The notes under the pieces: model-generated
Database searches by the model: none
The model's input: only the letters and a program-made list of their open reading frames with translations
What the model was told of the DNA's origin: nothing
From: a virus
Lineage: Duplodnaviria > Caudoviricetes
Reading direction: 5' to 3' (one strand)
IMG/VR virus record: IMGVR_UViG_3300028797_000004
DNA: 64,000 nucleotides
Made by a program: the position numbers and the translations under genes
In this document: positions 9,531 through 38,445 of the stretch, one piece after another
How positions within the stretch are numbered: the first letter of the stretch is position 1
Layout: each line of letters opens with the position of its first letter

Positions 9531-9895
9531 GAAAGCGATTTTCAAATACAGTGGTGTGCGGACGCTCAGTTCAAGTAGGTAACTTCTATCGAAGCTACAA
9601 TGGTACTTGTGTTGAAGTCATTGCTATCGCAGAGAATGTAGAAACTGGTCAAGAGATGGTCGTCTATCGTACTCGTCACGAACAGAAACGTGAAATTGAC
9701 GATATGATTCTCACTTGTACTGCCGAGGCATTCTTGAGTGATGTGCAAGTTGGTGGTGTAACCAAGACTCGATATCGTGAGGTACTGATAGGCGTAACAC
9801 GTTTTCACGATAAAGAGTGGGTAGAGCTTCTTGAATCGTCACCTATGCGATCACGTCACATGATAAGTTTTGAAACGCAGGAGGGGGCTCAGTAG
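9527..9895 (+). CDS. DUF1653-like protein
   Basis: [16 protein letters not shown]...ETGQEMVVY...F.S.V...RY pattern. Confidence 0.7.
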
Positions 9896-11019
9896 TGTTT
9901 AGATCATTTAGATTTCGATTGCATTTATCTACATTTCAGTCCGCACAAGTTCGACAAACATTCGGCTGTTGCCGATTTGTCTACAATTATTTTCTAGCGG
10001 ATTCTATCAAACAATACAAAGCTGACAAACAAAGCTTCAACTTATTTCAAAGTTTCAAGCAGCTTTCAGCAATGAGGAAGCTGTCAGAGTACAGCTGGTT
10101 ACAACAAGCTGATAGCGAAGCTTTGAGATATGCTTTGAAGCAGCTGAACTCAGCTTACCAAAATTTCTTCAGAAGTTTGGAGTCAGATAAACATATATGC
10201 TTTCCGAAGTTCAAATTTAAACGATTTGCAAAGCAAACATATACAACATCGGCTGTGAACGAAGCTACATTCCGTATTGAAAACAATAAGATTTTCATAC
10301 CTAAATTAGGGTTTGTTAAATTCCGAGGTCGTCAACATATGCAAGGCAAACCGATTCATGCTACAATCTCAAGGTCTGCAACTGGAAAATATTATATTTC
10401 TGTTGTTTGCAAAGATGTTCAAATTGATAAGTTACCTGAAACGCATCAAAGTGTAGGTATAGATTTAGGTCTGAAAGATTTTGCAATCACCTCAGACAGA
10501 GAAAAATTCTCAAATCCAAAATTCTTCGCAAAATACCAAAAACAGCTTGCAAAAGCTCAAAGAAAGCTGTCCCGAAAACCAAAGGGCAGCCATAACTTCG
10601 AGAAGCAAAAGCTGAGAGTTGCAAGAATTCACGAGAAAATTACAAACTGTCGAACAGATTTCTTGCAGAAGCTATCAACAAGTTTGATTCGCAGATATGA
10701 TATCCTCTGCATTGAAGACCTGTCAGTGCAAGGCATGATGCAGAATCATAAGCTTGCAAAATCAATTGCGGATGTTTCTTGGTCACGATTTGTATCAATG
10801 CTGAGCTACAAAGCTGAGTGGTATGGTAGAACTCTCCAGAAAATCAACAAGTTCTATCCAAGTTCACAATTGTGCAGCTGCTGCGGGCATCAGAATCCAG
10901 ATGTCAAAGACTTAGCAGTTCGCAGATGGATCTGCCCACAGTGCAACACAGAACACGACAGAGATACCAACGCAGCGAAAAACATTTTAGCTGAAGGTCT
11001 CAGATTACTTTCAGCTTAA
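9895..11019 (+). CDS. tnpB: RNA-guided endonuclease TnpB (IS200/IS605 OrfB), no recognisable transposon ends
   Basis: N-terminal HTH ([10 protein letters not shown]), RuvC GIDLG / IEDL / DRDTNAA, CSCCG..CPQC zinc finger; GTG start overlaps upstream TAG. Confidence 0.95.
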
Positions 11020-14749: not shown

Positions 14750-15514
14750 ATGTTTGTGTCCGAGTCATTTTGCTCAATTGACGGTGAAGGCGTTAGAGCA
14801 GGACAAAAAGCCGTGTTCATACGTTTCGCAGGTTGTAACATTCGTTGCGAATACTGTGACACCAAATACTCGCTTGCTGAATCGCAAGCTAATGCAGCAT
14901 ACACATGCGCTGCTGATGTAGCTGAAGCAGTAACAAAATTCTGCGTAGAAGGTGTAGTGAATAACATCACAATCACAGGTGGTGAACCTTTGCTATATCC
15001 GGATGATATCTGCGCTATACTTGACCAGCTAGATCAAACACAATTTGCGTTCAGTATCAATATTGAAACAAATGGCACTATCAGCCCAGTTGAGTTCATT
15101 GAGAAGTACAAGAGGACAAGTTTCGCTCACTGCTTACTCAATGATTTGTTCTTCACTTTTGATATCAAAACTTATTCGGCAGGTGAAGATGCAAAGGCAG
15201 CTTGTATGCAGGGTGATAGTTTACTTCCTGTTATTGCAAGCTATTCACCTTACATAAACACTTTCACAAGAAAGTATAATGACGTAATCAAAGCTGTAGT
15301 TGGTTCTCGAGAGGATCTTGATTATATTCGCAAGATCTACACATCATGGATCACAAGACCTCATGAGTACCAATGGTACATCTCGCCAGTATTTGGCAAG
15401 ATAGAGCCTTGTGATTTAGTTGAGTATGTGCTCACACACAATGATTGTGCAGCATGGCGAGTTCAAATTCAGATGCATAAAATCATATGGAACAGTGATA
15501 AGCGAGGCGTATAA
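14750..15514 (+). CDS. queE: 7-carboxy-7-deazaguanine synthase-like radical SAM enzyme
   Basis: ESFCSIDGEG..AG...VFIRFAGCNIRCEYCDT, ITGGEPL, IETNG, QIQMHKIIW...RGV. Confidence 0.85.
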   Translation: MFVSESFCSIDGEGVRAGQKAVFIRFAGCNIRCEYCDTKYSLAESQANAAYTCAADVAEAVTKFCVEGVVNNITITGGEPLLYPDDICAILDQLDQTQFAFSINIETNGTISPVEFIEKYKRTSFAHCLLNDLFFTFDIKTYSAGEDAKAACMQGDSLLPVIASYSPYINTFTRKYNDVIKAVVGSREDLDYIRKIYTSWITRPHEYQWYISPVFGKIEPCDLVEYVLTHNDCAAWRVQIQMHKIIWNSDKRGV

Positions 15515-15515
15515 C

Positions 15516-15977
15516 ATGAAGTTCTATATTCATGCAATGTCTGATGCTAGGAGAAAAATTGAGTCAACTTTGCGTGACGCTACTCCGAAGATAATCGAAC
15601 ACATTGCAAAATTGATATTGATGCCTGATAGTGAGTCTCGCAATCATTGGGAGAAAGAAATTGTCACATTTATCAGCAAAGTTTCTACACTGAAAGGTAG
15701 CAATAAATGGCCAACTGCAAAGCAGATATTTAGCTGGACATATGGTATTGATCAAGATCTGATTCAACGACCAGCTTGGGTTAAGGTGTATATGCGTAAC
15801 ATTGCACGAGATGAGGGCTGCGAGTTTGATTCAAGTCGAGATTACTCTACCATATTAGATTATATTTGCTATCATTATTTTACGTGGCTGTCAGAGCAGC
15901 TGAGTCAACAAGGCATCATAGATCATCAGGAAGCTTATGTGCTTCTTGATGATTTGCTTGCAGATTATAGTTTATGA
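15516..15977 (+). CDS. DUF29-like helical protein with MKFYIHA leader (paralogue of 32485 and 37996)
   Basis: EHIAKLILMPDSESRNHWEKEI; KGSNKWPTAKQI. Confidence 0.65.
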   Translation: MKFYIHAMSDARRKIESTLRDATPKIIEHIAKLILMPDSESRNHWEKEIVTFISKVSTLKGSNKWPTAKQIFSWTYGIDQDLIQRPAWVKVYMRNIARDEGCEFDSSRDYSTILDYICYHYFTWLSEQLSQQGIIDHQEAYVLLDDLLADYSL

Positions 15978-28780: not shown

Positions 28781-28989
28781 ATATGAAAGGTGTGTATCAG
28801 ACTGTGATACCAGACGATCTCGGAAAGAAAGCAGAAGCAAAGATAAAAGCATGGTTAGATAGACCTGCGGAAGGATATTGTATAGATAGAGTATACGACC
28901 AACTATCAGGATTCTACGGTTCAAAGAATCTGAATTTTAGCATTGGTCTTCATGTGAATCGTTATTAAATATGAAAGGGGTAAACTGCT

Positions 28990-29307
28990 ATGAAGTTATA
29001 TATTCGTGCAGCTACACTGACGCCTAAAGATGTGAAGCGCATGTACGATGCTGGTGAGTTAGAAAATCACAAAGGCTATGAAGTTGATGTGCTGAATAGA
29101 GCTGGTGGACTTCTTACTCACAATTATCTTGACTGCTTCACATATCAAGGTAAATATTATATCTACTGTGATTTACATGGCTGGACGTATGCTAGAGGTG
29201 GTGGCGAAGCTCGAAATAGGTTTCTGAAAGAGTTTGATAACAAGAATCAAGCTAATGCCTACTTCAAGAAGCTGGTTCAAGGTAGAAAGTACAGGAGGAT
29301 AGAATGA
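28990..29307 (+). CDS. Hypothetical protein with MKLYIRA leader
   Basis: SD AAGGGG; shared leader. Confidence 0.7.
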   Translation: MKLYIRAATLTPKDVKRMYDAGELENHKGYEVDVLNRAGGLLTHNYLDCFTYQGKYYIYCDLHGWTYARGGGEARNRFLKEFDNKNQANAYFKKLVQGRKYRRIE

Positions 29308-29861
29308 AACTATATATCAAAGCTGCAACAACTCCTGCAGAATACAACAATCGTCAAACAGAAGTGGGCTCTACTTTGAAGACATACAAAGGTTCACCTA
29401 TCAAGCGTAGCACTAAGTATGGTGTCGGTAAGGAGATCGGCGGAGACATATATGTACATAAGATGTATGCCGATGCTGTAGTGCCTGCAGATGTACTTGC
29501 TAGAGCGAAGTCAATCCTGCAGCAGAGCTATCCTGATTTTCAATATAACTGTATTCGCTATTCTCCGAAGACTGGAGCAGTATCGTTTCAAGAAGTTCCT
29601 GATTTTGACACAGCTCGTGAACCTAAAGTAGGTCACTATATTACAATACTTCCTGACGGCTCTGTAAAAACTGGATATTCACCTTATATCTTTCATCACA
29701 AGTGGCTCTGGGTGAAAAATGATTATTCAGGTTTCGATGTAGCTGAAAGCTGGAATTGGTCACGTCAGTGGCTAAACACATTGCAAGAGACATCAGACGG
29801 TAACGGTATTGGTCGCTGGAATGCCCAGCTAGATCGATACGGTCTACCGCATGATAATTAA
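29304..29861 (+). CDS. MKLYIKA-leader protein resembling the accessory domain of the DNA phosphorothioation-associated putative methyltransferase
   Basis: GK.IGGDIYVH, VSF..VPDFDT..EP, PYIFHHKWLWV..DY..F, IG.W..QL. Confidence 0.6.
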   Translation: MKLYIKAATTPAEYNNRQTEVGSTLKTYKGSPIKRSTKYGVGKEIGGDIYVHKMYADAVVPADVLARAKSILQQSYPDFQYNCIRYSPKTGAVSFQEVPDFDTAREPKVGHYITILPDGSVKTGYSPYIFHHKWLWVKNDYSGFDVAESWNWSRQWLNTLQETSDGNGIGRWNAQLDRYGLPHDN

Positions 29862-29934
29862 GCGTATAAGGGTATGAGGTTGAAAAATTCATATGCATAA
29901 ATCACATGATATAGGGACTGTTGAGGTGAATGTT

Positions 29935-30195
29935 ATGTCTGAAATTTTAGTTATCAGCCCATACCACTATGCGCTTGCACAGAAAGTAGACGACATTAAG
30001 CTGCGCAAATTCTGTGCACAAGACAATAACTACAACTTATACGCTATACAAGCTCTGCCTTATGAAGTTGCTGAGAAGATAAAAGGTCAATCCTTTGACT
30101 TCGCTTACATTGACAACCATTATATTGATGAAGAGATTGCAGAGATTCGCTCACATATCACTGGTGAGCAGTACAAGCGTATTAAATTCTTTTGA
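29935..30195 (+). CDS. Hypothetical protein
   Basis: GAGGTG SD before ATG 29935. Confidence 0.6.
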   Translation: MSEILVISPYHYALAQKVDDIKLRKFCAQDNNYNLYAIQALPYEVAEKIKGQSFDFAYIDNHYIDEEIAEIRSHITGEQYKRIKFF

Positions 30196-30233
30196 CATCT
30201 TCCTGTTCATATTTGAACAATCTCCTTATTACT

Positions 30234-30267
30234 GAGGTATCGCAACCCCTGCGGTACCTCTCTTTTT
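30234..30267 (+). terminator. Intrinsic terminator
   Basis: GAGGTATCGCA-ACCCC-TGCGGTACCTC + TCTTTTT. Confidence 0.8.
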
Positions 30268-30302
30268 GTAGTGGATCCGTCAAAGATTAATGAACGATTA
30301 AT

Positions 30303-30367
30303 GAATCGTAAATAATTGATTAATTTTCTGAAAAACTATTGATTTCTCGCCTATGCGATGCTATAAT
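30303..30367 (+). promoter_or_regulatory. Early sigma-A promoter with conserved 44-bp block (copy 2)
   Basis: TTGATT(30339-44)-17 bp-TATAAT(30362-67), extended TG. Confidence 0.85.
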
Positions 30368-30421
30368 ATACTTGTAAACAAATTCACCTCATATTCTACT
30401 TTTGAAAGGTTGGTAGATCTT

Positions 30422-30658
30422 ATGAAACGAACAATTGCATTTTCTTCTCCCGAGACCGGATATCTTTCGAGTATGCCTATACTCACTTCTGAAGAATTCC
30501 AGTCTGCTAAGCTCAAGTATGTCTGCACCAGTTGGAATGCAGACCCGAAAGCAAATATCCACATATACAAGAAGCTTGATAGCTCTAATGAATACGTCGG
30601 TGTCGAAGAAGCAGACATTGACGAAGCTATCGCAGCCATCAACATCTTGCTCAGCTAA
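30422..30658 (+). CDS. Small early protein
   Basis: First gene after early promoter. Confidence 0.65.
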   Translation: MKRTIAFSSPETGYLSSMPILTSEEFQSAKLKYVCTSWNADPKANIHIYKKLDSSNEYVGVEEADIDEAIAAINILLS

Positions 30659-30671
30659 GGAGGTAGGTCTT

Positions 30672-31034
30672 ATGTTAAAGAATTTAGTACCTAGAGAGAC
30701 TGTCGAGATCGTAGAGCACACAATCGAGTTCACAGAGAACGGCAGCGGATTTTCATTCAAGGCAACACCAACAGGCGAAGTCATTCTTGAGAACAAAGAC
30801 CAGGAAGCAAATTATCAGTTTGCTATCGCTCACCCAGAGCTGTTCACAGATGAGTACAACAAGTTCCGCACAAGACGTCGTCACTACACAGAAAATGCTC
30901 ACGGTACTTGCACCTGCGGAGCTCAGGTAGAACTCTACAATCAGTATCAGGGAGCTTGTCAGTGTCCAAGATGCGACAGATGGTACAACTTATTTGGGCA
31001 GGAACTTATATCCCCAGAGTACTGGGAGGACTAA
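30672..31034 (+). CDS. Early protein with CxC...CxxC zinc ribbon
   Basis: AAGGAGGT SD; CTCG...CQCPRC.RWYNLFGQEL. Confidence 0.7.
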   Translation: MLKNLVPRETVEIVEHTIEFTENGSGFSFKATPTGEVILENKDQEANYQFAIAHPELFTDEYNKFRTRRRHYTENAHGTCTCGAQVELYNQYQGACQCPRCDRWYNLFGQELISPEYWED

Positions 31035-31049
31035 TAGGAGGTAACAATC

Positions 31050-31517
31050 ATGAGGAGAGTAATGTTTTGGGACGACAATAGGTGCGTCAAGGTGGTCATG
31101 CTTGCAGGGTTCAACACTGATGAGTGTCTTAAGATGGCACATTTCTACTACGTGAATCTTCCTAACGACGAGCAGTTCAAGTATACAGACATTCAAGTAG
31201 ACCCTTTCGACTACGGTCGCATTGATGTATCTAAATCCTACAAGGAGTTCGGCAGTTCGCTGCTGAAAGCTATCAAGTGGCTCGACGACAATGATTTCGA
31301 GGCTACACTTACAACGTACAACACCGATAGGGCTGTCTTTCGTGTTTATCGCAACGGTACAGAAGACGAGCTCACGCTTACTAATGCAGTACTCAATCCT
31401 ACAAAGGTCAAAATCCTTGACTACATGGAGCAGTTCCTCAAGAGCTTCAAGATGAAGCAAGAGATTGAACGACTCAAAGCTGAGAAAGCTGCACGTGACG
31501 CTGCTAAGGAGGTCTGA
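31050..31517 (+). CDS. Early hypothetical protein
   Basis: GGAGGT SD. Confidence 0.7.
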   Translation: MRRVMFWDDNRCVKVVMLAGFNTDECLKMAHFYYVNLPNDEQFKYTDIQVDPFDYGRIDVSKSYKEFGSSLLKAIKWLDDNDFEATLTTYNTDRAVFRVYRNGTEDELTLTNAVLNPTKVKILDYMEQFLKSFKMKQEIERLKAEKAARDAAKEV

Positions 31518-31520
31518 CAT

Positions 31521-31757
31521 ATGAATATCAGAGAAGCTGAAGAAATGCTCGAGTACGAGCTCAGTGTCAAGCGCAGAGCGCTTGAATACATACAGGAGAA
31601 TGCAGATGACTTCGACGATGACGAAGAAATCGACATGGACGAACTCTGCAGATCTATCGCAGAGGAAGACGAATACAACTTCCAGCGTAACGAAGAAAAT
31701 TCACTTCGTAACGCTTGGCAGCAGGATCTTATCGACATGTACCGCTTCGAGAGATAG
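31521..31757 (+). CDS. Small very acidic early protein
   Basis: AAGGAGGT SD; D/E-rich core. Confidence 0.65.
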   Translation: MNIREAEEMLEYELSVKRRALEYIQENADDFDDDEEIDMDELCRSIAEEDEYNFQRNEENSLRNAWQQDLIDMYRFER

Positions 31758-31767
31758 GAGGCAGCAT

Positions 31768-32016
31768 ATGAAAACTACAGTATACGTGAGCTTGATCACA
31801 CCAAGCAGCAATCTTCGCATTGCTGAAATCGACAACGTGGAGCTCAAGTACGGCCAAGCTTTCTTCACCGAAGAGCAGTGGGCAGCAGTCAAGCAGGCGG
31901 AAGCAGCTAATACTCGCAACCTCAAAGGCTACTCTATCGAGTTTCACATTCCTGGCTGTACGCCACTCCAAGGTGTTCACTACCCGAGCATGCAAAGACG
32001 AGGACAGGTGCGCTGA
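31768..32016 (+). CDS. Early hypothetical protein
   Basis: GGAGG SD; followed by hairpin 32009-32035. Confidence 0.65.
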   Translation: MKTTVYVSLITPSSNLRIAEIDNVELKYGQAFFTEEQWAAVKQAEAANTRNLKGYSIEFHIPGCTPLQGVHYPSMQRRGQVR

Positions 32017-32089
32017 GGGGTCTACCTTCAGCGCTAACCTTTCATATTTACATACGAATCTCTAACAGAAAGTGAGGTATCACTCTAGT

Positions 32090-32470
32090 ATGAAAATGTA
32101 CGTGAAAGCTGCTACTGATGAGCAGAATAAGTATAAGTCAAACCTGAAGAGTGCAGGCCCAAAGCTTCGCGCTGATATCAAGAAGCTTGAAAAAACACTC
32201 AAGGATGTACAGAAGAAGAAGGACGAGCTCAAAGCTCTCCTTGATTCAGCTGACATCATATATCCTACAGAGGAATACGACATCAAGAACCCAGAAGATT
32301 TTGAGTGGTTCATGGACGAGAAGAGAACTTCTGATGACGAAGCAGACGAAATCTACAGCCAGTTTGACGAAGCAATGAAACTCGTTGACGAGTATGACGA
32401 ACTCGCAGACTATTTAGACAAGCTCAAAGATGCACTTGAGAAGCTCCCAAGTGATCTTGATCTTGATTAA
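32090..32470 (+). CDS. Coiled-coil protein with MKMYVKA leader
   Basis: After late motif 32037; GAGGT SD. Confidence 0.7.
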   Translation: MKMYVKAATDEQNKYKSNLKSAGPKLRADIKKLEKTLKDVQKKKDELKALLDSADIIYPTEEYDIKNPEDFEWFMDEKRTSDDEADEIYSQFDEAMKLVDEYDELADYLDKLKDALEKLPSDLDLD

Positions 32471-32484
32471 GAGGTGAGCCTTAC

Positions 32485-33489
32485 ATGAAATGGTACATAC
32501 AAGGTCAAGCTAAGAGCTCCAAAGATATTGAAAACACCCTCAAAGATCACATCACTGAGATAGAACTCAATTTCATAATGCTTGTGCTTGGTCCTGGTGT
32601 AAGTACTCGACATCACTGGAAGCAAGAAGTCTACGCACAGATACACGATGTACCAGTAACTAAGAAAAGTAAGCAATATCCTACAGAAGCTCAGCTTTAC
32701 AAATGGCTGTACACTGATAATATTCCTGATTTTCAGGAACCTAAAAAGTTCAGAAAGTTGCTCAAGGCAATTTCTGATAAAGAAAAACAGCTCCCGAAAC
32801 CTGGAGATGCTGAAGCGTTGCAAAAGCAAGTAATTGAGTACCTACATGAGTATTTCACTTGGCTTGCTGCTGCACTTTCAGAAGACGGCTACGTCACGCT
32901 TTCAGAAGTTGAGGAAGCACTTACACATATTTTAGAAAGTGGTGAAAACACAATGAAAAAATACATTAAATCTGATTCACTTGATGATCCTCGTGTATGG
33001 ACTAAAGCACAGAGGGCAAAACTTATAGATCTGATCGACAAGTACTACGACGATGACTCAAAGTATGAGTATGTAGAAGAGGTGCTTGAGGAAGTATCCG
33101 GTCTAGATTTCGATGAGCTTGATGACAACGACTACGGTACTGGTGAAGGCTTCTACAAGCACTTCACATCAGAGCAGCTGGCTGAAGCTTTCAAAAAGCT
33201 CAGATCTGCATACGGATCAATTGACGGCTGCTCTTCTGTAACAGCTGCTTCCGCAAGCAATGTTGAAGCTAGAGTTCAAGAGTATGTAGAAGGCGTGCTT
33301 CATGATGCACTTGAAAATCTTGAAAACACAGACCTAACAGCTAATGTAGTGCAGCAGAAGGTTGGCGGATACAACAGCGATTGGTGTAATGAAGAGGCTC
33401 TCCCATCAGGTACAATGGCTAAGTTTGACAAAGCTGTAAAAGCTCTTGCAAAGCTGTATGCAGAAACTTTATTCTGGAATGAACCTTGA
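32485..33489 (+). CDS. Multi-module protein: DUF29-like domain + internal MKKYIKS module (ATG 32953) + third module after SSVTA-AS
   Basis: RHHWKQEV / KKSKQYPTEAQL homology to 15516 and 37996; internal leader with SD-like GGTG. Confidence 0.65.
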   Translation: MKWYIQGQAKSSKDIENTLKDHITEIELNFIMLVLGPGVSTRHHWKQEVYAQIHDVPVTKKSKQYPTEAQLYKWLYTDNIPDFQEPKKFRKLLKAISDKEKQLPKPGDAEALQKQVIEYLHEYFTWLAAALSEDGYVTLSEVEEALTHILESGENTMKKYIKSDSLDDPRVWTKAQRAKLIDLIDKYYDDDSKYEYVEEVLEEVSGLDFDELDDNDYGTGEGFYKHFTSEQLAEAFKKLRSAYGSIDGCSSVTAASASNVEARVQEYVEGVLHDALENLENTDLTANVVQQKVGGYNSDWCNEEALPSGTMAKFDKAVKALAKLYAETLFWNEP

Positions 33490-33506
33490 CTGAGAGGTGA
33501 GCTTAT

Positions 33507-33842
33507 ATGAATATAAAGCGTAAACCTATAACTGCTGCAAGCCGCGGCGCATCAGGCGCTGCAGCCATAGCTAAGAAAGATGCAGAAATGGCAATATATC
33601 TTGCTCAGCAAGGTGAAACCGACTGCGAACTTGAAATAAACAGCAAGCTTGACAACGATCGTTATTGGGCAGTGTTCAACAGAATGCTTAAAGAGGCAGA
33701 TGTTTACTACACTATTGAAAGCAATGACGCAGAGTACCTTGAGGGTACAGGTTTAAATTACTATTACTTGCGCATTTGGACACGTGATTCAGCTGATGAG
33801 CTATTTGCTCCGAATGCAGAGAAATATGCCCCAAGGTGGTGA
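33507..33842 (+). CDS. Hypothetical protein with MNIKRKPITA-AS leader
   Basis: GAGGTG SD. Confidence 0.7.
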   Translation: MNIKRKPITAASRGASGAAAIAKKDAEMAIYLAQQGETDCELEINSKLDNDRYWAVFNRMLKEADVYYTIESNDAEYLEGTGLNYYYLRIWTRDSADELFAPNAEKYAPRW

Positions 33843-33848
33843 AAACAG

Positions 33849-34061
33849 ATGAAACTATACATTAAAGCTTCTGCAGATCCGAAGCAGAAGAAAAACAAAG
33901 CGCTCAGAGAGTTTGATCAGCAGCTTCTAGACGAAGCATTGTCAAAGCTGAATAAAGTATATGAGTACAACTATTCAGAGTCTTCACATGATAAGGTGTC
34001 ACGTCGCCTTGAAGTGATCATGAAGAAGATTAAAGAGCTCAAGGCTCTGGAAATCGATTAG
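33849..34061 (+). CDS. Small protein with MKLYIKA leader
   Basis: SD and shared leader. Confidence 0.7.
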   Translation: MKLYIKASADPKQKKNKALREFDQQLLDEALSKLNKVYEYNYSESSHDKVSRRLEVIMKKIKELKALEID

Positions 34062-34083
34062 ATCTAGATGGAGGTCAAGAGCT

Positions 34084-34614
34084 ATGAAACTTTCAGCTAA
34101 AGACAAGAAGACATTTGGGGCTATAACTGCTTCAACTGATGTATACTCACATGATATACTGAAGATGCAAGGCAACTGGGCAGCTCCTAAGAAAATTGAA
34201 CAAGCTCTCAGAGATGAAATCTCATCAGATGATACAGTAATTGAGGTCAAAGCTACATATACACCTGAGCGCGATACGACAATCATAGCATTCAAGTATA
34301 TTGACAAAAGTGCAACGAAAGACTTCGCAGCTGTGAAGTCTTCGACAACAATCAATGCTGCTTATGGGTCAATTACAGACCCTAACAACGTCACAATTTC
34401 TGAGCTCATGAGTCGTATTGACGTAGAGCAACCAGACCTCTGGGACGATGCTGTCAAGTATCTTGATAAATGGCTTGATAATCCTGAAGATGTATGGGCA
34501 GATGACTGCCCGGACTGGGAAATTGCTTCCTGGGGTATAGGCTCAGACAACATTATAACTACATTAAAATCTGCCCTTGAGACTGGTGTAGTTGAAGACA
34601 TGTATACATCCTGA
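34084..34614 (+). CDS. Two-module protein with ITA-S and INA-A junctions
   Basis: GGAGGT SD. Confidence 0.65.
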   Translation: MKLSAKDKKTFGAITASTDVYSHDILKMQGNWAAPKKIEQALRDEISSDDTVIEVKATYTPERDTTIIAFKYIDKSATKDFAAVKSSTTINAAYGSITDPNNVTISELMSRIDVEQPDLWDDAVKYLDKWLDNPEDVWADDCPDWEIASWGIGSDNIITTLKSALETGVVEDMYTS

Positions 34615-35078: not shown

Positions 35079-35223
35079 TCACACACATACATGCCCTCAG
35101 CGTTGAAGTCTAACACTGAGGGCAAACCTATTATACATACATAGACGTGAAACACATCTTTGTGTGTTCTCACAACGTGATAAACACACTTACAAATACA
35201 GATCAATAAGGAGTGATAACAAT

Positions 35224-35769
35224 ATGTTCACACCACTTTCAATGGGTACAAATCATATGCTGGCTCAGGACAACATGGTTCCTATAACAACAAATAACTT
35301 TGAGGTTCGCTTGTTCAACCTAGACGGCAGCCAGCCTTCCGAATCAAACATCTTAACACTCTACACAGATGAAATCGGAGATGTCCAGGAAGAACAAGAC
35401 ATCATATCTGTTCACTATGGTAACGGTGTACAGAAGTTCCCTTCAAAGGTTACTTTCGCAGATGTAGACTGGACACTGAATTACTTCTGCTCACCTAATG
35501 TAGCTGATGCTATTCATGCATGGAGAGAGAAAGTATTCGAGTTCGAGTCACAGAAGATGGGCTTACCAAGCCAATATATGAAGAACGCATATTTTATCAG
35601 ATATGACGGTCAAGGTAACCCGCGTAGCATCATATATCTACCTTGTGTATGGCCTGGCGCAGTCCGTGAGACAGGTGGAAATCAGCAGGGCGGCGAAGTT
35701 GTAAAAATTTCATTCCCGCTGGTGGTTTCCAGAATGCAGTACATCAAGCCAGAGGACTACAGAGGTTGA
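35224..35769 (+). CDS. Tail tube protein (T4 gp19-like)
   Basis: NNFEV, VHYGN...KFPSKVTF.D..T, WRE.V, G.P.QYMKNA, WPG.V...G. Confidence 0.8.
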   Translation: MFTPLSMGTNHMLAQDNMVPITTNNFEVRLFNLDGSQPSESNILTLYTDEIGDVQEEQDIISVHYGNGVQKFPSKVTFADVDWTLNYFCSPNVADAIHAWREKVFEFESQKMGLPSQYMKNAYFIRYDGQGNPRSIIYLPCVWPGAVRETGGNQQGGEVVKISFPLVVSRMQYIKPEDYRG

Positions 35770-36558: not shown

Positions 36559-37809
36559 ATGTATCTAACAGTAAAGCAAAAAGTAAAGCATCTGTCAAAG
36601 GGAGAATACAGCATTTTGAGAGAATTGTGTCATACAGCAAAAAATCTTGCCAATGAAGCAATCTATAATGTCCGTCAGTATTACTTCACAGAGGGAGAAT
36701 ATCTGAAATACGAAAAGAATTACGCATTGCTGAAAGACAGTCCTAATTACAAAATACTCAACTCCAATATGGCACAGCAGATTTTGAAAGAAGTAGACGG
36801 TTCATTCAAAAGCTTTTTCGGACTTCTGAAACCTGCAAAGAAAGGCAAGTATTCTTTCAGAGACTGCAAATTACCGCATTATCTCCCAAAAGACGGATTT
36901 GTTACGCTTGTGATAGGATTTGTCAGGCTGAATGGAAATAAGCTGATTCTTCCATATTCCAATACATTCAAGAAAACGCACAAGCCTGTTGAAATCAAAA
37001 TACCGCCGATACTTGCTGACAAGCATATCAAAGAAATCAGAATCATTCCGAAATCAGGAGCAAGGTTCTTTGAAATTCAGTATACTTATGAAGCTGAATG
37101 TATTCAAAGAAATCTTAACAAAAACAATGCACTTGCTCTGGATTTAGGTGTGAATAATCTTGTGACTGCTGTATCAAGTGAGGGCAGAAGCTTCATCATT
37201 GACGGCAGAAAGCTGAAATCTGTCAATCAATGGTTTAACAAAGAAAATGCACGGCTGCAAGGTATCAAAGACAGGCAGGGTGATAAAAGAAGAACAACAA
37301 ACCGTCAGAAAATCTTAGCTGACAAAAGAAACAGACAAGTCAATGACTATATGAGTAAAACTGCAAGAAAAATCATCGATTACTGTATTGCTCATGATAT
37401 TGGAACGCTTGTAGTCGGATATAATGAAACATTTCAGCGAAATTCTGGCATGAACAAGCGTAACAATCAGAATTTTGTCAATATTCCGTATGGTAAACTG
37501 CGTTCCAAACTGGAATATCTTTGTGAACTGAACGGAATTGTTTTTGTCAAGCAGGAAGAAAGCTATACTTCACAAGCATCTTTCTGGGACAGGGATAATA
37601 TTCCTGTCTATAATGCAGACAATCCGCAGTCCTATAAATTCAGCGGAACACGCATACGAAGAGGATTGTACAAAACTGCTGACGGAATATTGCTTAACGC
37701 GGATGTCAATGGTGCATTGAATATTTTAAGAAAAAGTAGCGTTGTGGACTTAACAGTCCTATACGGTAGTGGCGAAGTGGATACGCCTGTAAGAATAAGG
37801 GTTGCCTGA
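36559..37809 (+). CDS. tnpB: RNA-guided endonuclease TnpB
   Basis: ALDLGVNN, QEESYTS, RRGLY, NADVNGALNI. Confidence 0.95.
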   Translation: MYLTVKQKVKHLSKGEYSILRELCHTAKNLANEAIYNVRQYYFTEGEYLKYEKNYALLKDSPNYKILNSNMAQQILKEVDGSFKSFFGLLKPAKKGKYSFRDCKLPHYLPKDGFVTLVIGFVRLNGNKLILPYSNTFKKTHKPVEIKIPPILADKHIKEIRIIPKSGARFFEIQYTYEAECIQRNLNKNNALALDLGVNNLVTAVSSEGRSFIIDGRKLKSVNQWFNKENARLQGIKDRQGDKRRTTNRQKILADKRNRQVNDYMSKTARKIIDYCIAHDIGTLVVGYNETFQRNSGMNKRNNQNFVNIPYGKLRSKLEYLCELNGIVFVKQEESYTSQASFWDRDNIPVYNADNPQSYKFSGTRIRRGLYKTADGILLNADVNGALNILRKSSVVDLTVLYGSGEVDTPVRIRVA

Positions 37810-37995: not shown

Positions 37996-38445
37996 ATGAA
38001 ACTTTACATTCGTGCAATGTCAGAGACAAAGCAGAAAGTCGAACAAGATTTTTACCATCGTGCTGACGTGACGTTAGAGCATATCATGAAATTAGTTCTT
38101 ATGCCTGATCATGAATCTCGGAATCATTGGCGTAAAGAGATCGCTACACAATTTTTCAAGCTCCCTAAATTCAAAGGCAGCAATAAGTATCCAACTGAGA
38201 AACAGATATTTGATTGGACTTACAATAAATGGGCAGATGAAATGCATGATCCTAGATGGATGCAGAATATGATGCTTCGTCTATGTAAAGACTATCGTGT
38301 TATTTCGCCTTACACTGTTAAAGAATTTGCAGTTAAGGTGAACCGTATTTGCAAATCATATTTTGCATATGCAGCGCAGCAGCTACATCTGAATCAAACA
38401 CTACCGTCTGCAGATACATATGCTTTTCTAGACGAGGTACTGTGA
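37996..38445 (+). CDS. DUF29-like helical protein with MKLYIRA leader
   Basis: EHIMKLVLMPDHESRNHWRKEI; KGSNKYPTEKQI. Confidence 0.65.
   Translation: MKLYIRAMSETKQKVEQDFYHRADVTLEHIMKLVLMPDHESRNHWRKEIATQFFKLPKFKGSNKYPTEKQIFDWTYNKWADEMHDPRWMQNMMLRLCKDYRVISPYTVKEFAVKVNRICKSYFAYAAQQLHLNQTLPSADTYAFLDEVL

Follow-up and report, generated by a model that had tools for sequence, protein, structure and literature searches.

Why should small proteins with little else in common begin with the same seven residues? The question is raised by positions 28,990 to 34,614 of a 64,000-nucleotide stretch of viral DNA (the window), taken from the record IMGVR_UViG_3300028797_000004, where one open reading frame (ORF) after another starts with a variant of MKxYIxA, here called the tag. 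The original prediction took the tag for an address label analogous to that of bacteriophage T4 internal proteins. In T4 such capsid-targeting sequences are found on the internal proteins IPI-III and Alt and are removed by the prohead protease gp21, according to Mullaney and Black (1996) as cited in PMC9026906. The window corresponds to positions 41793-105792 of a viral genome of 148,711 bp. The record has a 127-bp end overlap and therefore is circular. The phage is uncultured and is labelled G000 in comparisons with its relatives. Our answer, with a probability of about 0.5, is that the tag would be a capsid-targeting propeptide of the T4 kind, in a phage lineage where the head protease appears to have moved over to Ala/Ser sites as in herpesviruses.

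Scanned in all six frames, the complete genome yielded ten matches to M-K-x-Y-[IV]-x-[AGS], all on the plus strand. Nine are ORF starts (window 15516, 28990, 29304, 32090, 32485, 33849 and 37996; genome 9578 and 10056); the sole internal copy lies at window 32953, within the ORF that starts at 32485. An eleventh copy begins with GTG (genome 128341), which makes ten ORF starts and one internal copy. The starts listed originally, as well as the internal MKKYIKS-DS, are thus borne out. The number is far above expectation. When each N-terminal column was shuffled among the ORFs, a conservative null that retains the composition made by the tag itself, 0.22 tagged called starts were expected and 8 were observed. 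The tag is conserved at the amino-acid level, because the synonymous codons and the upstream DNA vary between copies: Leu is encoded by TTG, TTA, CTA or CTT, Tyr by TAT or TAC, Ile by ATA, ATT or ATC and Ala by GCT or GCA, and only a ribosome-binding site is common to the DNA in front. These differences rule out a shared 5' cassette and also dispose of conservation at the nucleotide level only, which had been named at the outset as the finding that would speak against an address tag. Among the papers searched for the tag strings, none contains them.

The tagged ORFs had been called otherwise unrelated. This holds for 28990, 29304, 32090, 33849 and genome 128341, which show no BLAST match even among themselves. 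It is ruled out for the other five: with the first nine residues removed, the copies at genome 9578 and 10056, at window 15516 and 37996 and in the first 156 amino acids (aa) of the 32485 product join at 25-40% identity and form a paralog family of proteins of about 150 aa.

Is the tag, then, merely the N-terminus of this family? The relatives of the phage exclude it. A capsid protein with 63% identity to that of the phage is encoded on two viral contigs, and one of these relatives (G001, 126 kb) has its own tagged ORFs, starting MKRYIKSG.., MKIYVKSS.., MKRYIKCS.. and MYRYIKAA... A scan of 2.9 million viral contigs in IMG/VR with a DNA pattern for the tag gave nine stretches, seven of which are real starts of ORFs for diverse proteins; both source contigs that were complete enough to judge have a capsid protein 59% identical to the phage's. 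One of these two is G003 (200 kb, rated complete); its 20 tagged ORFs belong to 19 unrelated families, and the paralog family is missing from it altogether. With 73 further loci from a metagenome scan with the capsid-protein alignment, the three genomes contain 53 tagged ORFs in 46 BLAST-unrelated families. Positions left free in the pattern are also constrained: position 6 is Lys or Arg in 38 of 46 and position 8 is Ser, Ala or Asn in 40 of 46. Where all other residues of the motif are required, Tyr at position 4 and Lys at position 2 are each found in 31 of 39. It is the clade as a whole that is characterised by the tag. As in T4, one short leader is common to unrelated proteins, at ten ORF starts in the phage and in 46 families clade-wide. 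The non-paralog tagged genes of the phage have no orthologs in G001 and almost none in the clade, and the tagged set therefore turns over quickly. A Pfam family is absent in 17 of the 19 tagged G003 proteins, and no protein of recognisable housekeeping or structural function bears the tag. The tagged proteins are of mixed charge, with isoelectric points (pI) from 4.3 to 9.4.

The head genes of the phage lie just past the 3' end of the window (genome 109523-112388): a protease-scaffold fusion, followed by the capsid protein. The latter belongs to the Gp23 family, as in T4 (Pfam PF07068, E 1.9e-16, 60.9 bits against a cut-off of 24.4). The fusion protein (genome 109523-110920) comprises 466 aa and matches phrog_207 (2.1e-18). 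The AlphaFold2 model of its protease fits T4 gp21 (5JBL) with a probability of 1.0, a target TM-score of 0.68 and a root-mean-square deviation of 2.0 Å over 141 residues. Its motifs G-I-S-I-R-G and G-H-P align with G-V-S-S-R-G and N-H-P of T4. The phrog_207 and fold matches identify it as a gp21-type (S77) prohead serine protease; the Pfam S77 score, 20.4 bits, stays below the cut-off of 27. Herpesvirus proteases follow T4 gp21 as second-best fold matches (E 8e-3 and weaker, TM-score 0.32-0.47), and neither sequence nor fold places the enzyme in the herpesvirus family S21.

Three very acidic proteins (net charge -32 to -48) are encoded near the head genes, between a helicase gene and a RecU gene (L004:15077-18143, genome 120077-123143). 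They have basic leaders that end in [IV]-x-A and are candidates for prohead-core or internal proteins.

The original prediction had proposed that capsid and scaffold be checked for the leader motif. They contain it: [IV]-x-[AS] is found in the capsid propeptide, at the joint between protease and scaffold and in the scaffold linkers. Among 26 distinct capsid propeptides from the clade, 108 copies of the looser motif [IV]-x-[AS]-[small] were counted, a four-fold enrichment over the 25.4 ± 4.5 obtained by shuffling, and its density is 5.5 per 100 aa, compared with 1.5 in the mature part. These propeptides contain 10-20 Lys/Arg, and all 26 end in [IV]-M-[AG], then ATNT. The stretch ATNT..NIAA resembles, by eye, the start of mature T4 gp23. 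The joint reads [EA]-[IV]-A-A-S-[TS]-D in all 39 protease-scaffold sequences, and a second scaffold site, [VI]-T-A-S-T, lies about 50 aa from the C-terminal end in 31 of them. The scaffold has 3.4 sites per 100 aa, the protease domain 0.8. In the model of the fusion protein, the sites at 163, 189, 224 and 413 fall into low-confidence linkers; two unconserved ones lie within a long helix. The end of the short tag, [IV]-[KR]-[AS] then [SA], is the motif of propeptide and joint with a basic middle residue, and the residues preferred at position 8 of the tag are also those preferred after the motif in the capsid propeptides. The T4-type cleavage motif I/L-x-E is not seen in the leaders, which are devoid of Glu; 13 of the 26 capsid propeptides are Glu-free, and the whole set contains one [LI]-x-E. 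The motif shared by leader end, capsid propeptide and joint is, we infer, a putative cleavage site.

A second class of leaders points in the same direction. The two variants noted originally, MNIKRKPITA-AS at 33507 and ..GAITA-ST at 34084, are present, as are the internal sites SVTA-AS, TINA-AY, SITA-AT, SVES-AK and VIYA-AD. The pattern [IV]-T-A-[AS]-[ST] occurs nine times in the phage proteome (0.8 expected). It follows basic runs at the N-termini of six proteins, including those of window 33507 and 34084; the scaffold contains it three to four times, and the capsid propeptide has it too. In groups of orthologs, [IV]-x-[AS] is kept at the boundary between leader and body while the leader changes. 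The protein at genome 119853 begins MKRYIKHRAVTA-AT; its ortholog in G001 begins MYRYIKA-AE and that in G003 has ..GIKA-SE. At genome 121318 the phage has ..RRKVMA-ADSDYIKIG and G003 MKRKYIQS-AESDYVRVG, with no ortholog found in G001. The corresponding boundaries in G000, G001 and G003 are ..KKRPVTA-AT, ..KQTISA-SK and ..SEVTA-SK for genome 31782, and ..TKAIKA-DDE, ..RRVMA-DTD and ..RVIRS-DEE for genome 113804. Short and long leaders therefore replace each other on the same protein.

On the favoured reading, M-K-x-Y-[IV]-[KR]-[AS], followed by a small residue, would be an N-terminal propeptide, and M-x-I-K with a basic run and [IV]-[TS]-A would be a second, longer class of it. The M-K-x-Y part, to be compared with MKTYQEFIAE of T4, would bind to the scaffold core, and the protein would thereby become part of the prohead. 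There the phage's own head protease, of gp21 fold, would recognise the final three residues, [IV]-x-[AS], and remove the tag. The protease of this clade would cut after Ala, Ser or Gly, not after Glu. The tagged genes, mostly small orphans that differ between genomes, would represent a swappable virion-internal set, possibly delivered with the DNA. Cleavage, the exact cut position, targeting and injection are inferences from the sequences; cleavage by the head protease would in turn imply packaging, because gp21-type enzymes work inside the prohead. As originally proposed, a T4-like tag with a cut behind Ala or Ser fits every comparative test that was run; half of the examples then quoted, however, turned out to be one paralog family.

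This family deserves a closer look. It is large (750 clusters at 50% identity), and its N-terminus is conserved family-wide as MK-x-YI-x-AMS or MKLFVTEFAE. The model of a member is all-helical, with a pLDDT of 95.7, and the tag forms the start of helix 1. Neither a sequence match in the PDB nor a fold match was obtained for the family, and two relatives score 16.8 and 14.4 bits against Pfam DUF29, below the cut-off of 22.5. Four members (P0088, P0120, P0142 and P0149) have an extra MK-x-YIKS ahead of their own 'IYAMSK' start, and the tag is therefore a separable piece. Immediately upstream of the family member at 37996 lies a TnpB-like ORF (window 36559-37809); a second one is found at window 9895-11019, and a similar ORF is located at 171831 in G003.

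Could something other than the head protease read the tag? A host or phage unfoldase/protease that sees it as an N-terminal degron and so limits the lifetime of the protein, a chaperone or a modifying enzyme would do, and one class of N-terminal ClpX recognition signals indeed resembles M-basic-hydrophobic-hydrophobic-hydrophobic, as does the tag. The tagged genes are, moreover, dispersed and not concentrated around the capsid gene: of the 1219 ORFs no more than 10 kb away from it, 24 are tagged, as compared with 20 of 297 genome-wide in G003. Such a partner, for which no candidate enzyme was seen, would leave unexplained why the end of the tag copies a motif of the capsid propeptide that is invariant at the protease/scaffold joint, and why relatives with Glu-type sites have leaders ending in Glu. 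We consider it unlikely. The tag may also have no role in targeting or cleavage whatsoever and simply be a favoured way to begin a gene, with AT-rich early codons favourable to translation or a suitable first helix or strand, perhaps spread from the paralog family by recombination. Of course, Lys, Tyr and Ile codons are AT-rich, Tyr at position 4 is common in the clade generally (180 of 1669 ORFs), and in the paralog family the segment does start helix 1. But the residues are kept while synonymous codons vary freely, and the codons for Ala/Ser at positions 7 and 8 are rich in GC. The highly expressed genes of capsid, sheath and tube lack the tag. Recombination from the paralog family hardly accounts for 20 tagged ORFs in a genome without a single family member, or for the tag as an extra front piece on P0088, P0120 and P0149. 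A favoured start thus appears quite improbable.

Another reading accepts the cut by the head protease and moves it to the cytoplasm, where it would be a timing device that activates late proteins, with no packaging involved. T4 gp21 can act on a host cytosolic protein, as described in a 2026 preprint (PMC12991175), and the large, mixed-charge set of tagged proteins would suit such a scheme. In T4, however, the same kind of leader is a packaging signal (PMC9026906), and the removal of seven residues can hardly be expected to activate many unrelated folds. This possibility we rate as very unlikely.

A number of points nevertheless weigh against a capsid-targeting propeptide. The tag has few residues, and what makes it look like the T4 sequence is M-K-x-Y. 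In a MAFFT alignment the C-terminal ..KEITE-SQT of T4 gp21 stands opposite ..[EA]-I-A-A-STD of the clade; this juxtaposition of ITE-S and IAA-S is suggestive but lies in a weakly conserved region. In the paralog family, which accounts for five of the ten genome copies, the tag may be structural, to judge from the model. The family member of G001, a genome with Ala-type sites, starts MRLFVTE and breaks the covariation of leader end and site type for this family. Two paralogous tagged proteins of G003 (560 and 426 aa, L077:4406-7384) contain BspA-type leucine-rich repeats (Pfam LRR_5, E 1e-48); elsewhere BspA-type repeat proteins are surface proteins, which one would not expect inside a capsid. 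A tag on 5-7% of all genes makes a large cargo list. The basic capsid propeptide could also remain uncut and bind DNA through its basic residues.

Within the window, the tagged cluster (28990-34614) sits between tail-fibre genes and the tail tube gene (35164..35769), which follows directly downstream; the position of the tube gene therefore places the cluster among structural genes. The tube gene and all ORFs of the phage described in what follows are on the plus strand. The first (28990..29307, 105 aa, MKLYIRA-AT) belongs to no known family and is unrelated to the other tagged ORFs. It is followed by one of 185 aa (29304..29861, MKLYIKA-AT), whose residues 13-158 are a phrog_16075 domain. This domain occurs leaderless in KVP40-like Vibrio phages; whether the KVP40 homologue carries a T4-like capsid-targeting sequence was considered, and its start, MSIIFE, is uninformative. 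The ORF at 32090..32470 (126 aa, MKMYVKA-AT) codes for an acidic, coiled-coil-like protein. Next comes an ORF of 334 aa (32485..33489, MKWYIQG-QA), with the paralog-family domain in residues 1-156, the second tag MKKYIKS-DS at 32953, which is preceded by the ribosome-binding-like GGTGAAAAC, and the SVTA-AS site at aa 252. It is either a fusion of two tagged genes or has an internal start at 32953. The suggestion that some tagged genes encode polyproteins depends mainly on this ORF and on loose internal motif matches, and an internal start could explain the former equally well. Close relatives of this ORF, perhaps split elsewhere, were sought in viral and metagenome contigs, and none was found. 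The two long leaders of the cluster belong to the ORFs at 33507..33842 (111 aa, MNIKRKP-ITA-AS, a basic run followed by [IV]-T-A-[AS]) and 34084..34614 (176 aa, MKLSAKDKKTFGA-ITA-ST, with an internal TINA-AY at aa 89); that of the former resembles the N-terminus of the capsid protein. Between them lies an ORF of 70 aa (33849..34061, MKLYIKA-SA). Outside the cluster, the paralog family is represented by 37996..38445 (149 aa, MKLYIRA-MS, predicted to be all-helical, helix 1 beginning with the tag) and 15516..15977 (153 aa, MKFYIHA-MS).

The cluster from 32090 onwards had been supposed to sit behind a late promoter motif. This was not confirmed: the recurrent TGAATCGTTAT motif is found 33 nucleotides before 28990 and is absent directly before 32090. 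Across the genome, about 18 intergenic copies of a recurrent motif, (T)GAATCGTTAT, are seen (window 28957, 2049, 5902, 6953, 16306, 17749, 35776 and others), often 30-130 nucleotides ahead of a gene; the motif is a candidate promoter element of the phage. A further repeat of about 40 nucleotides, GATTAA[TC]GAATCGTAAATAATTGATTAATTTTC.GAAAA, has four intergenic copies (window 1112 and 30304; genome 128879 and 147200).

Some 34 kb of accessory genes, among them a tRNA operon, TnpB, the fibres and the tagged cluster, separate a sheath-like gene (genome 40409) from the tube gene at window 35164; in G001 sheath-like and tube genes are adjacent. Just upstream of the cluster, a 61-aa ORF (window 28783-28968) is a truncated copy of a full RecU-like gene (L004:18156-18647, Pfam RecU), and the N-terminal module MP..L..AK.AI.DAI..KGGTV is common to tail-fibre genes at window 25696, window 27438 and L004:19124. 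By sequence, RecU and fibre block look like a segmental duplication. By eye, N-termini similar to those of QueE, QueC and QueD of the 7-deazaguanine pathway were recognised at window 14750-15514 and at genome 27678 and 11227; such genes would suggest a modified DNA.

What would follow if the favoured reading were correct? In its widest form it would state that a gut/rumen-type clade with T4-type heads combines a gp21-fold protease cutting after Ala, Ser or Gly with an assemblin-like layout of sites and a seven-residue capsid ticket for dozens of swappable orphans, a combination to which we give somewhat less than even odds. For the divergence of the maturation systems of phages and herpesviruses, a lineage with cuts behind small residues and a herpesvirus-like placement of its sites would be informative, and it might be a living intermediate between the two systems. 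With a packaging tag of seven residues, one would have a very compact means of loading foreign proteins into capsids, and also a simple rule to find the virion-delivered proteins of uncultured phages, which is where anti-defence functions such as that of T4 IPI are expected.

How does the tag compare with known propeptides? The host's Prp-type processing of ribosomal protein L27 cuts a propeptide after F-A; this type was rejected, the tag having no Phe pair. The likeness to T4 is closer. Here as there, a short N-terminal leader that begins M-K-x-Y and ends aliphatic-x-P1 is attached to unrelated, fast-evolving small proteins, in a phage that has a Gp23-family capsid protein and a gp21-fold protease. 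T4 IPII and IPIII both start with MKTYQEFIAE. Targeting there depends mainly on leader residues 4 and 7, processing on residues 8 and 10 (PMC9026906), and gp21 cleaves at I/L-x-E (PMC12991175, PMC5694885). The tag, in contrast, has 7 residues instead of 10-19 and ends in Ala/Ser instead of Glu; it occurs in 46 families, not in a handful. Cleavage behind Glu is the rule for every gp21-related phage head protease that has been characterised to date (PMC5694885, PMC9026906). This also applies to phiKZ, 201phi2-1 and SPN3US, where many virion-internal proteins are processed by a gp21-related protease (PMC5694885). They share with the clade a short motif and several redundant sites per propeptide; they differ in cutting after Glu (S/A/G-x-E) and in propeptides that often exceed 100 residues and have no single short tag in common.

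Among cultured phages, the nearest relatives are of the Glu type, and their capsid proteins show about 26% identity. In Streptococcus phage vB_SagM-GXN1 (PQ819873.1) the capsid propeptide contains LIE-S, LLE-N and LLE-S sites, and five mutually unrelated ORFs start with MRL[VI][RK]L-x-E, a start not seen in any of the controls. They are located at 98803, 122094, 132585, 132841 and 134401 (L051 / PQ819873.1); three of them adjoin the capsid gene. As in our clade, one leader on many unrelated ORFs ends in the predicted protease motif of the lineage; the ending is aliphatic-x-Glu, however, as opposed to aliphatic-x-Ala/Ser with Glu-free, strongly basic capsid propeptides. Being cultured, GXN1 is a tractable model for the leader idea. 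In Bacillus phage HSE3 the protease-scaffold has 24 [LI]-x-E and 3 Ala-type motifs, and the capsid propeptide is rich in Glu. From T4, GXN1 and HSE3 it therefore emerges that leader ends follow the site type of the lineage.

For the site type itself, the best parallel is the assemblin of herpesviruses, a UL26-type protease fused to the scaffold, with release at Y-L/V-x-A then S/T and maturation at V-x-A then S (PMC4498786). The pseudorabies virus enzyme cuts Y-L-Q-A then T at the release site and V-Q-A then S at the maturation site (PMC4498786). In the clade, too, a protease of the same fold clan is fused ahead of the scaffold, and [IV]-A-A-S at the joint (39/39) and [VI]-T-A-S near the C-terminal end of the scaffold (31/39), both in predicted linkers, match in residues and placement. 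The tag itself, Y-[IV]-[KR]-A then A/S, has the look of a release site. Herpesviruses, on the other hand, have no known N-terminally tagged set of cargo proteins, and the clade enzyme is nearer to T4 gp21 in sequence and fold (TM-score 0.68 versus 0.32-0.47). What is new here is the non-Glu, herpesvirus-like type of site and the size of the tagged repertoire.

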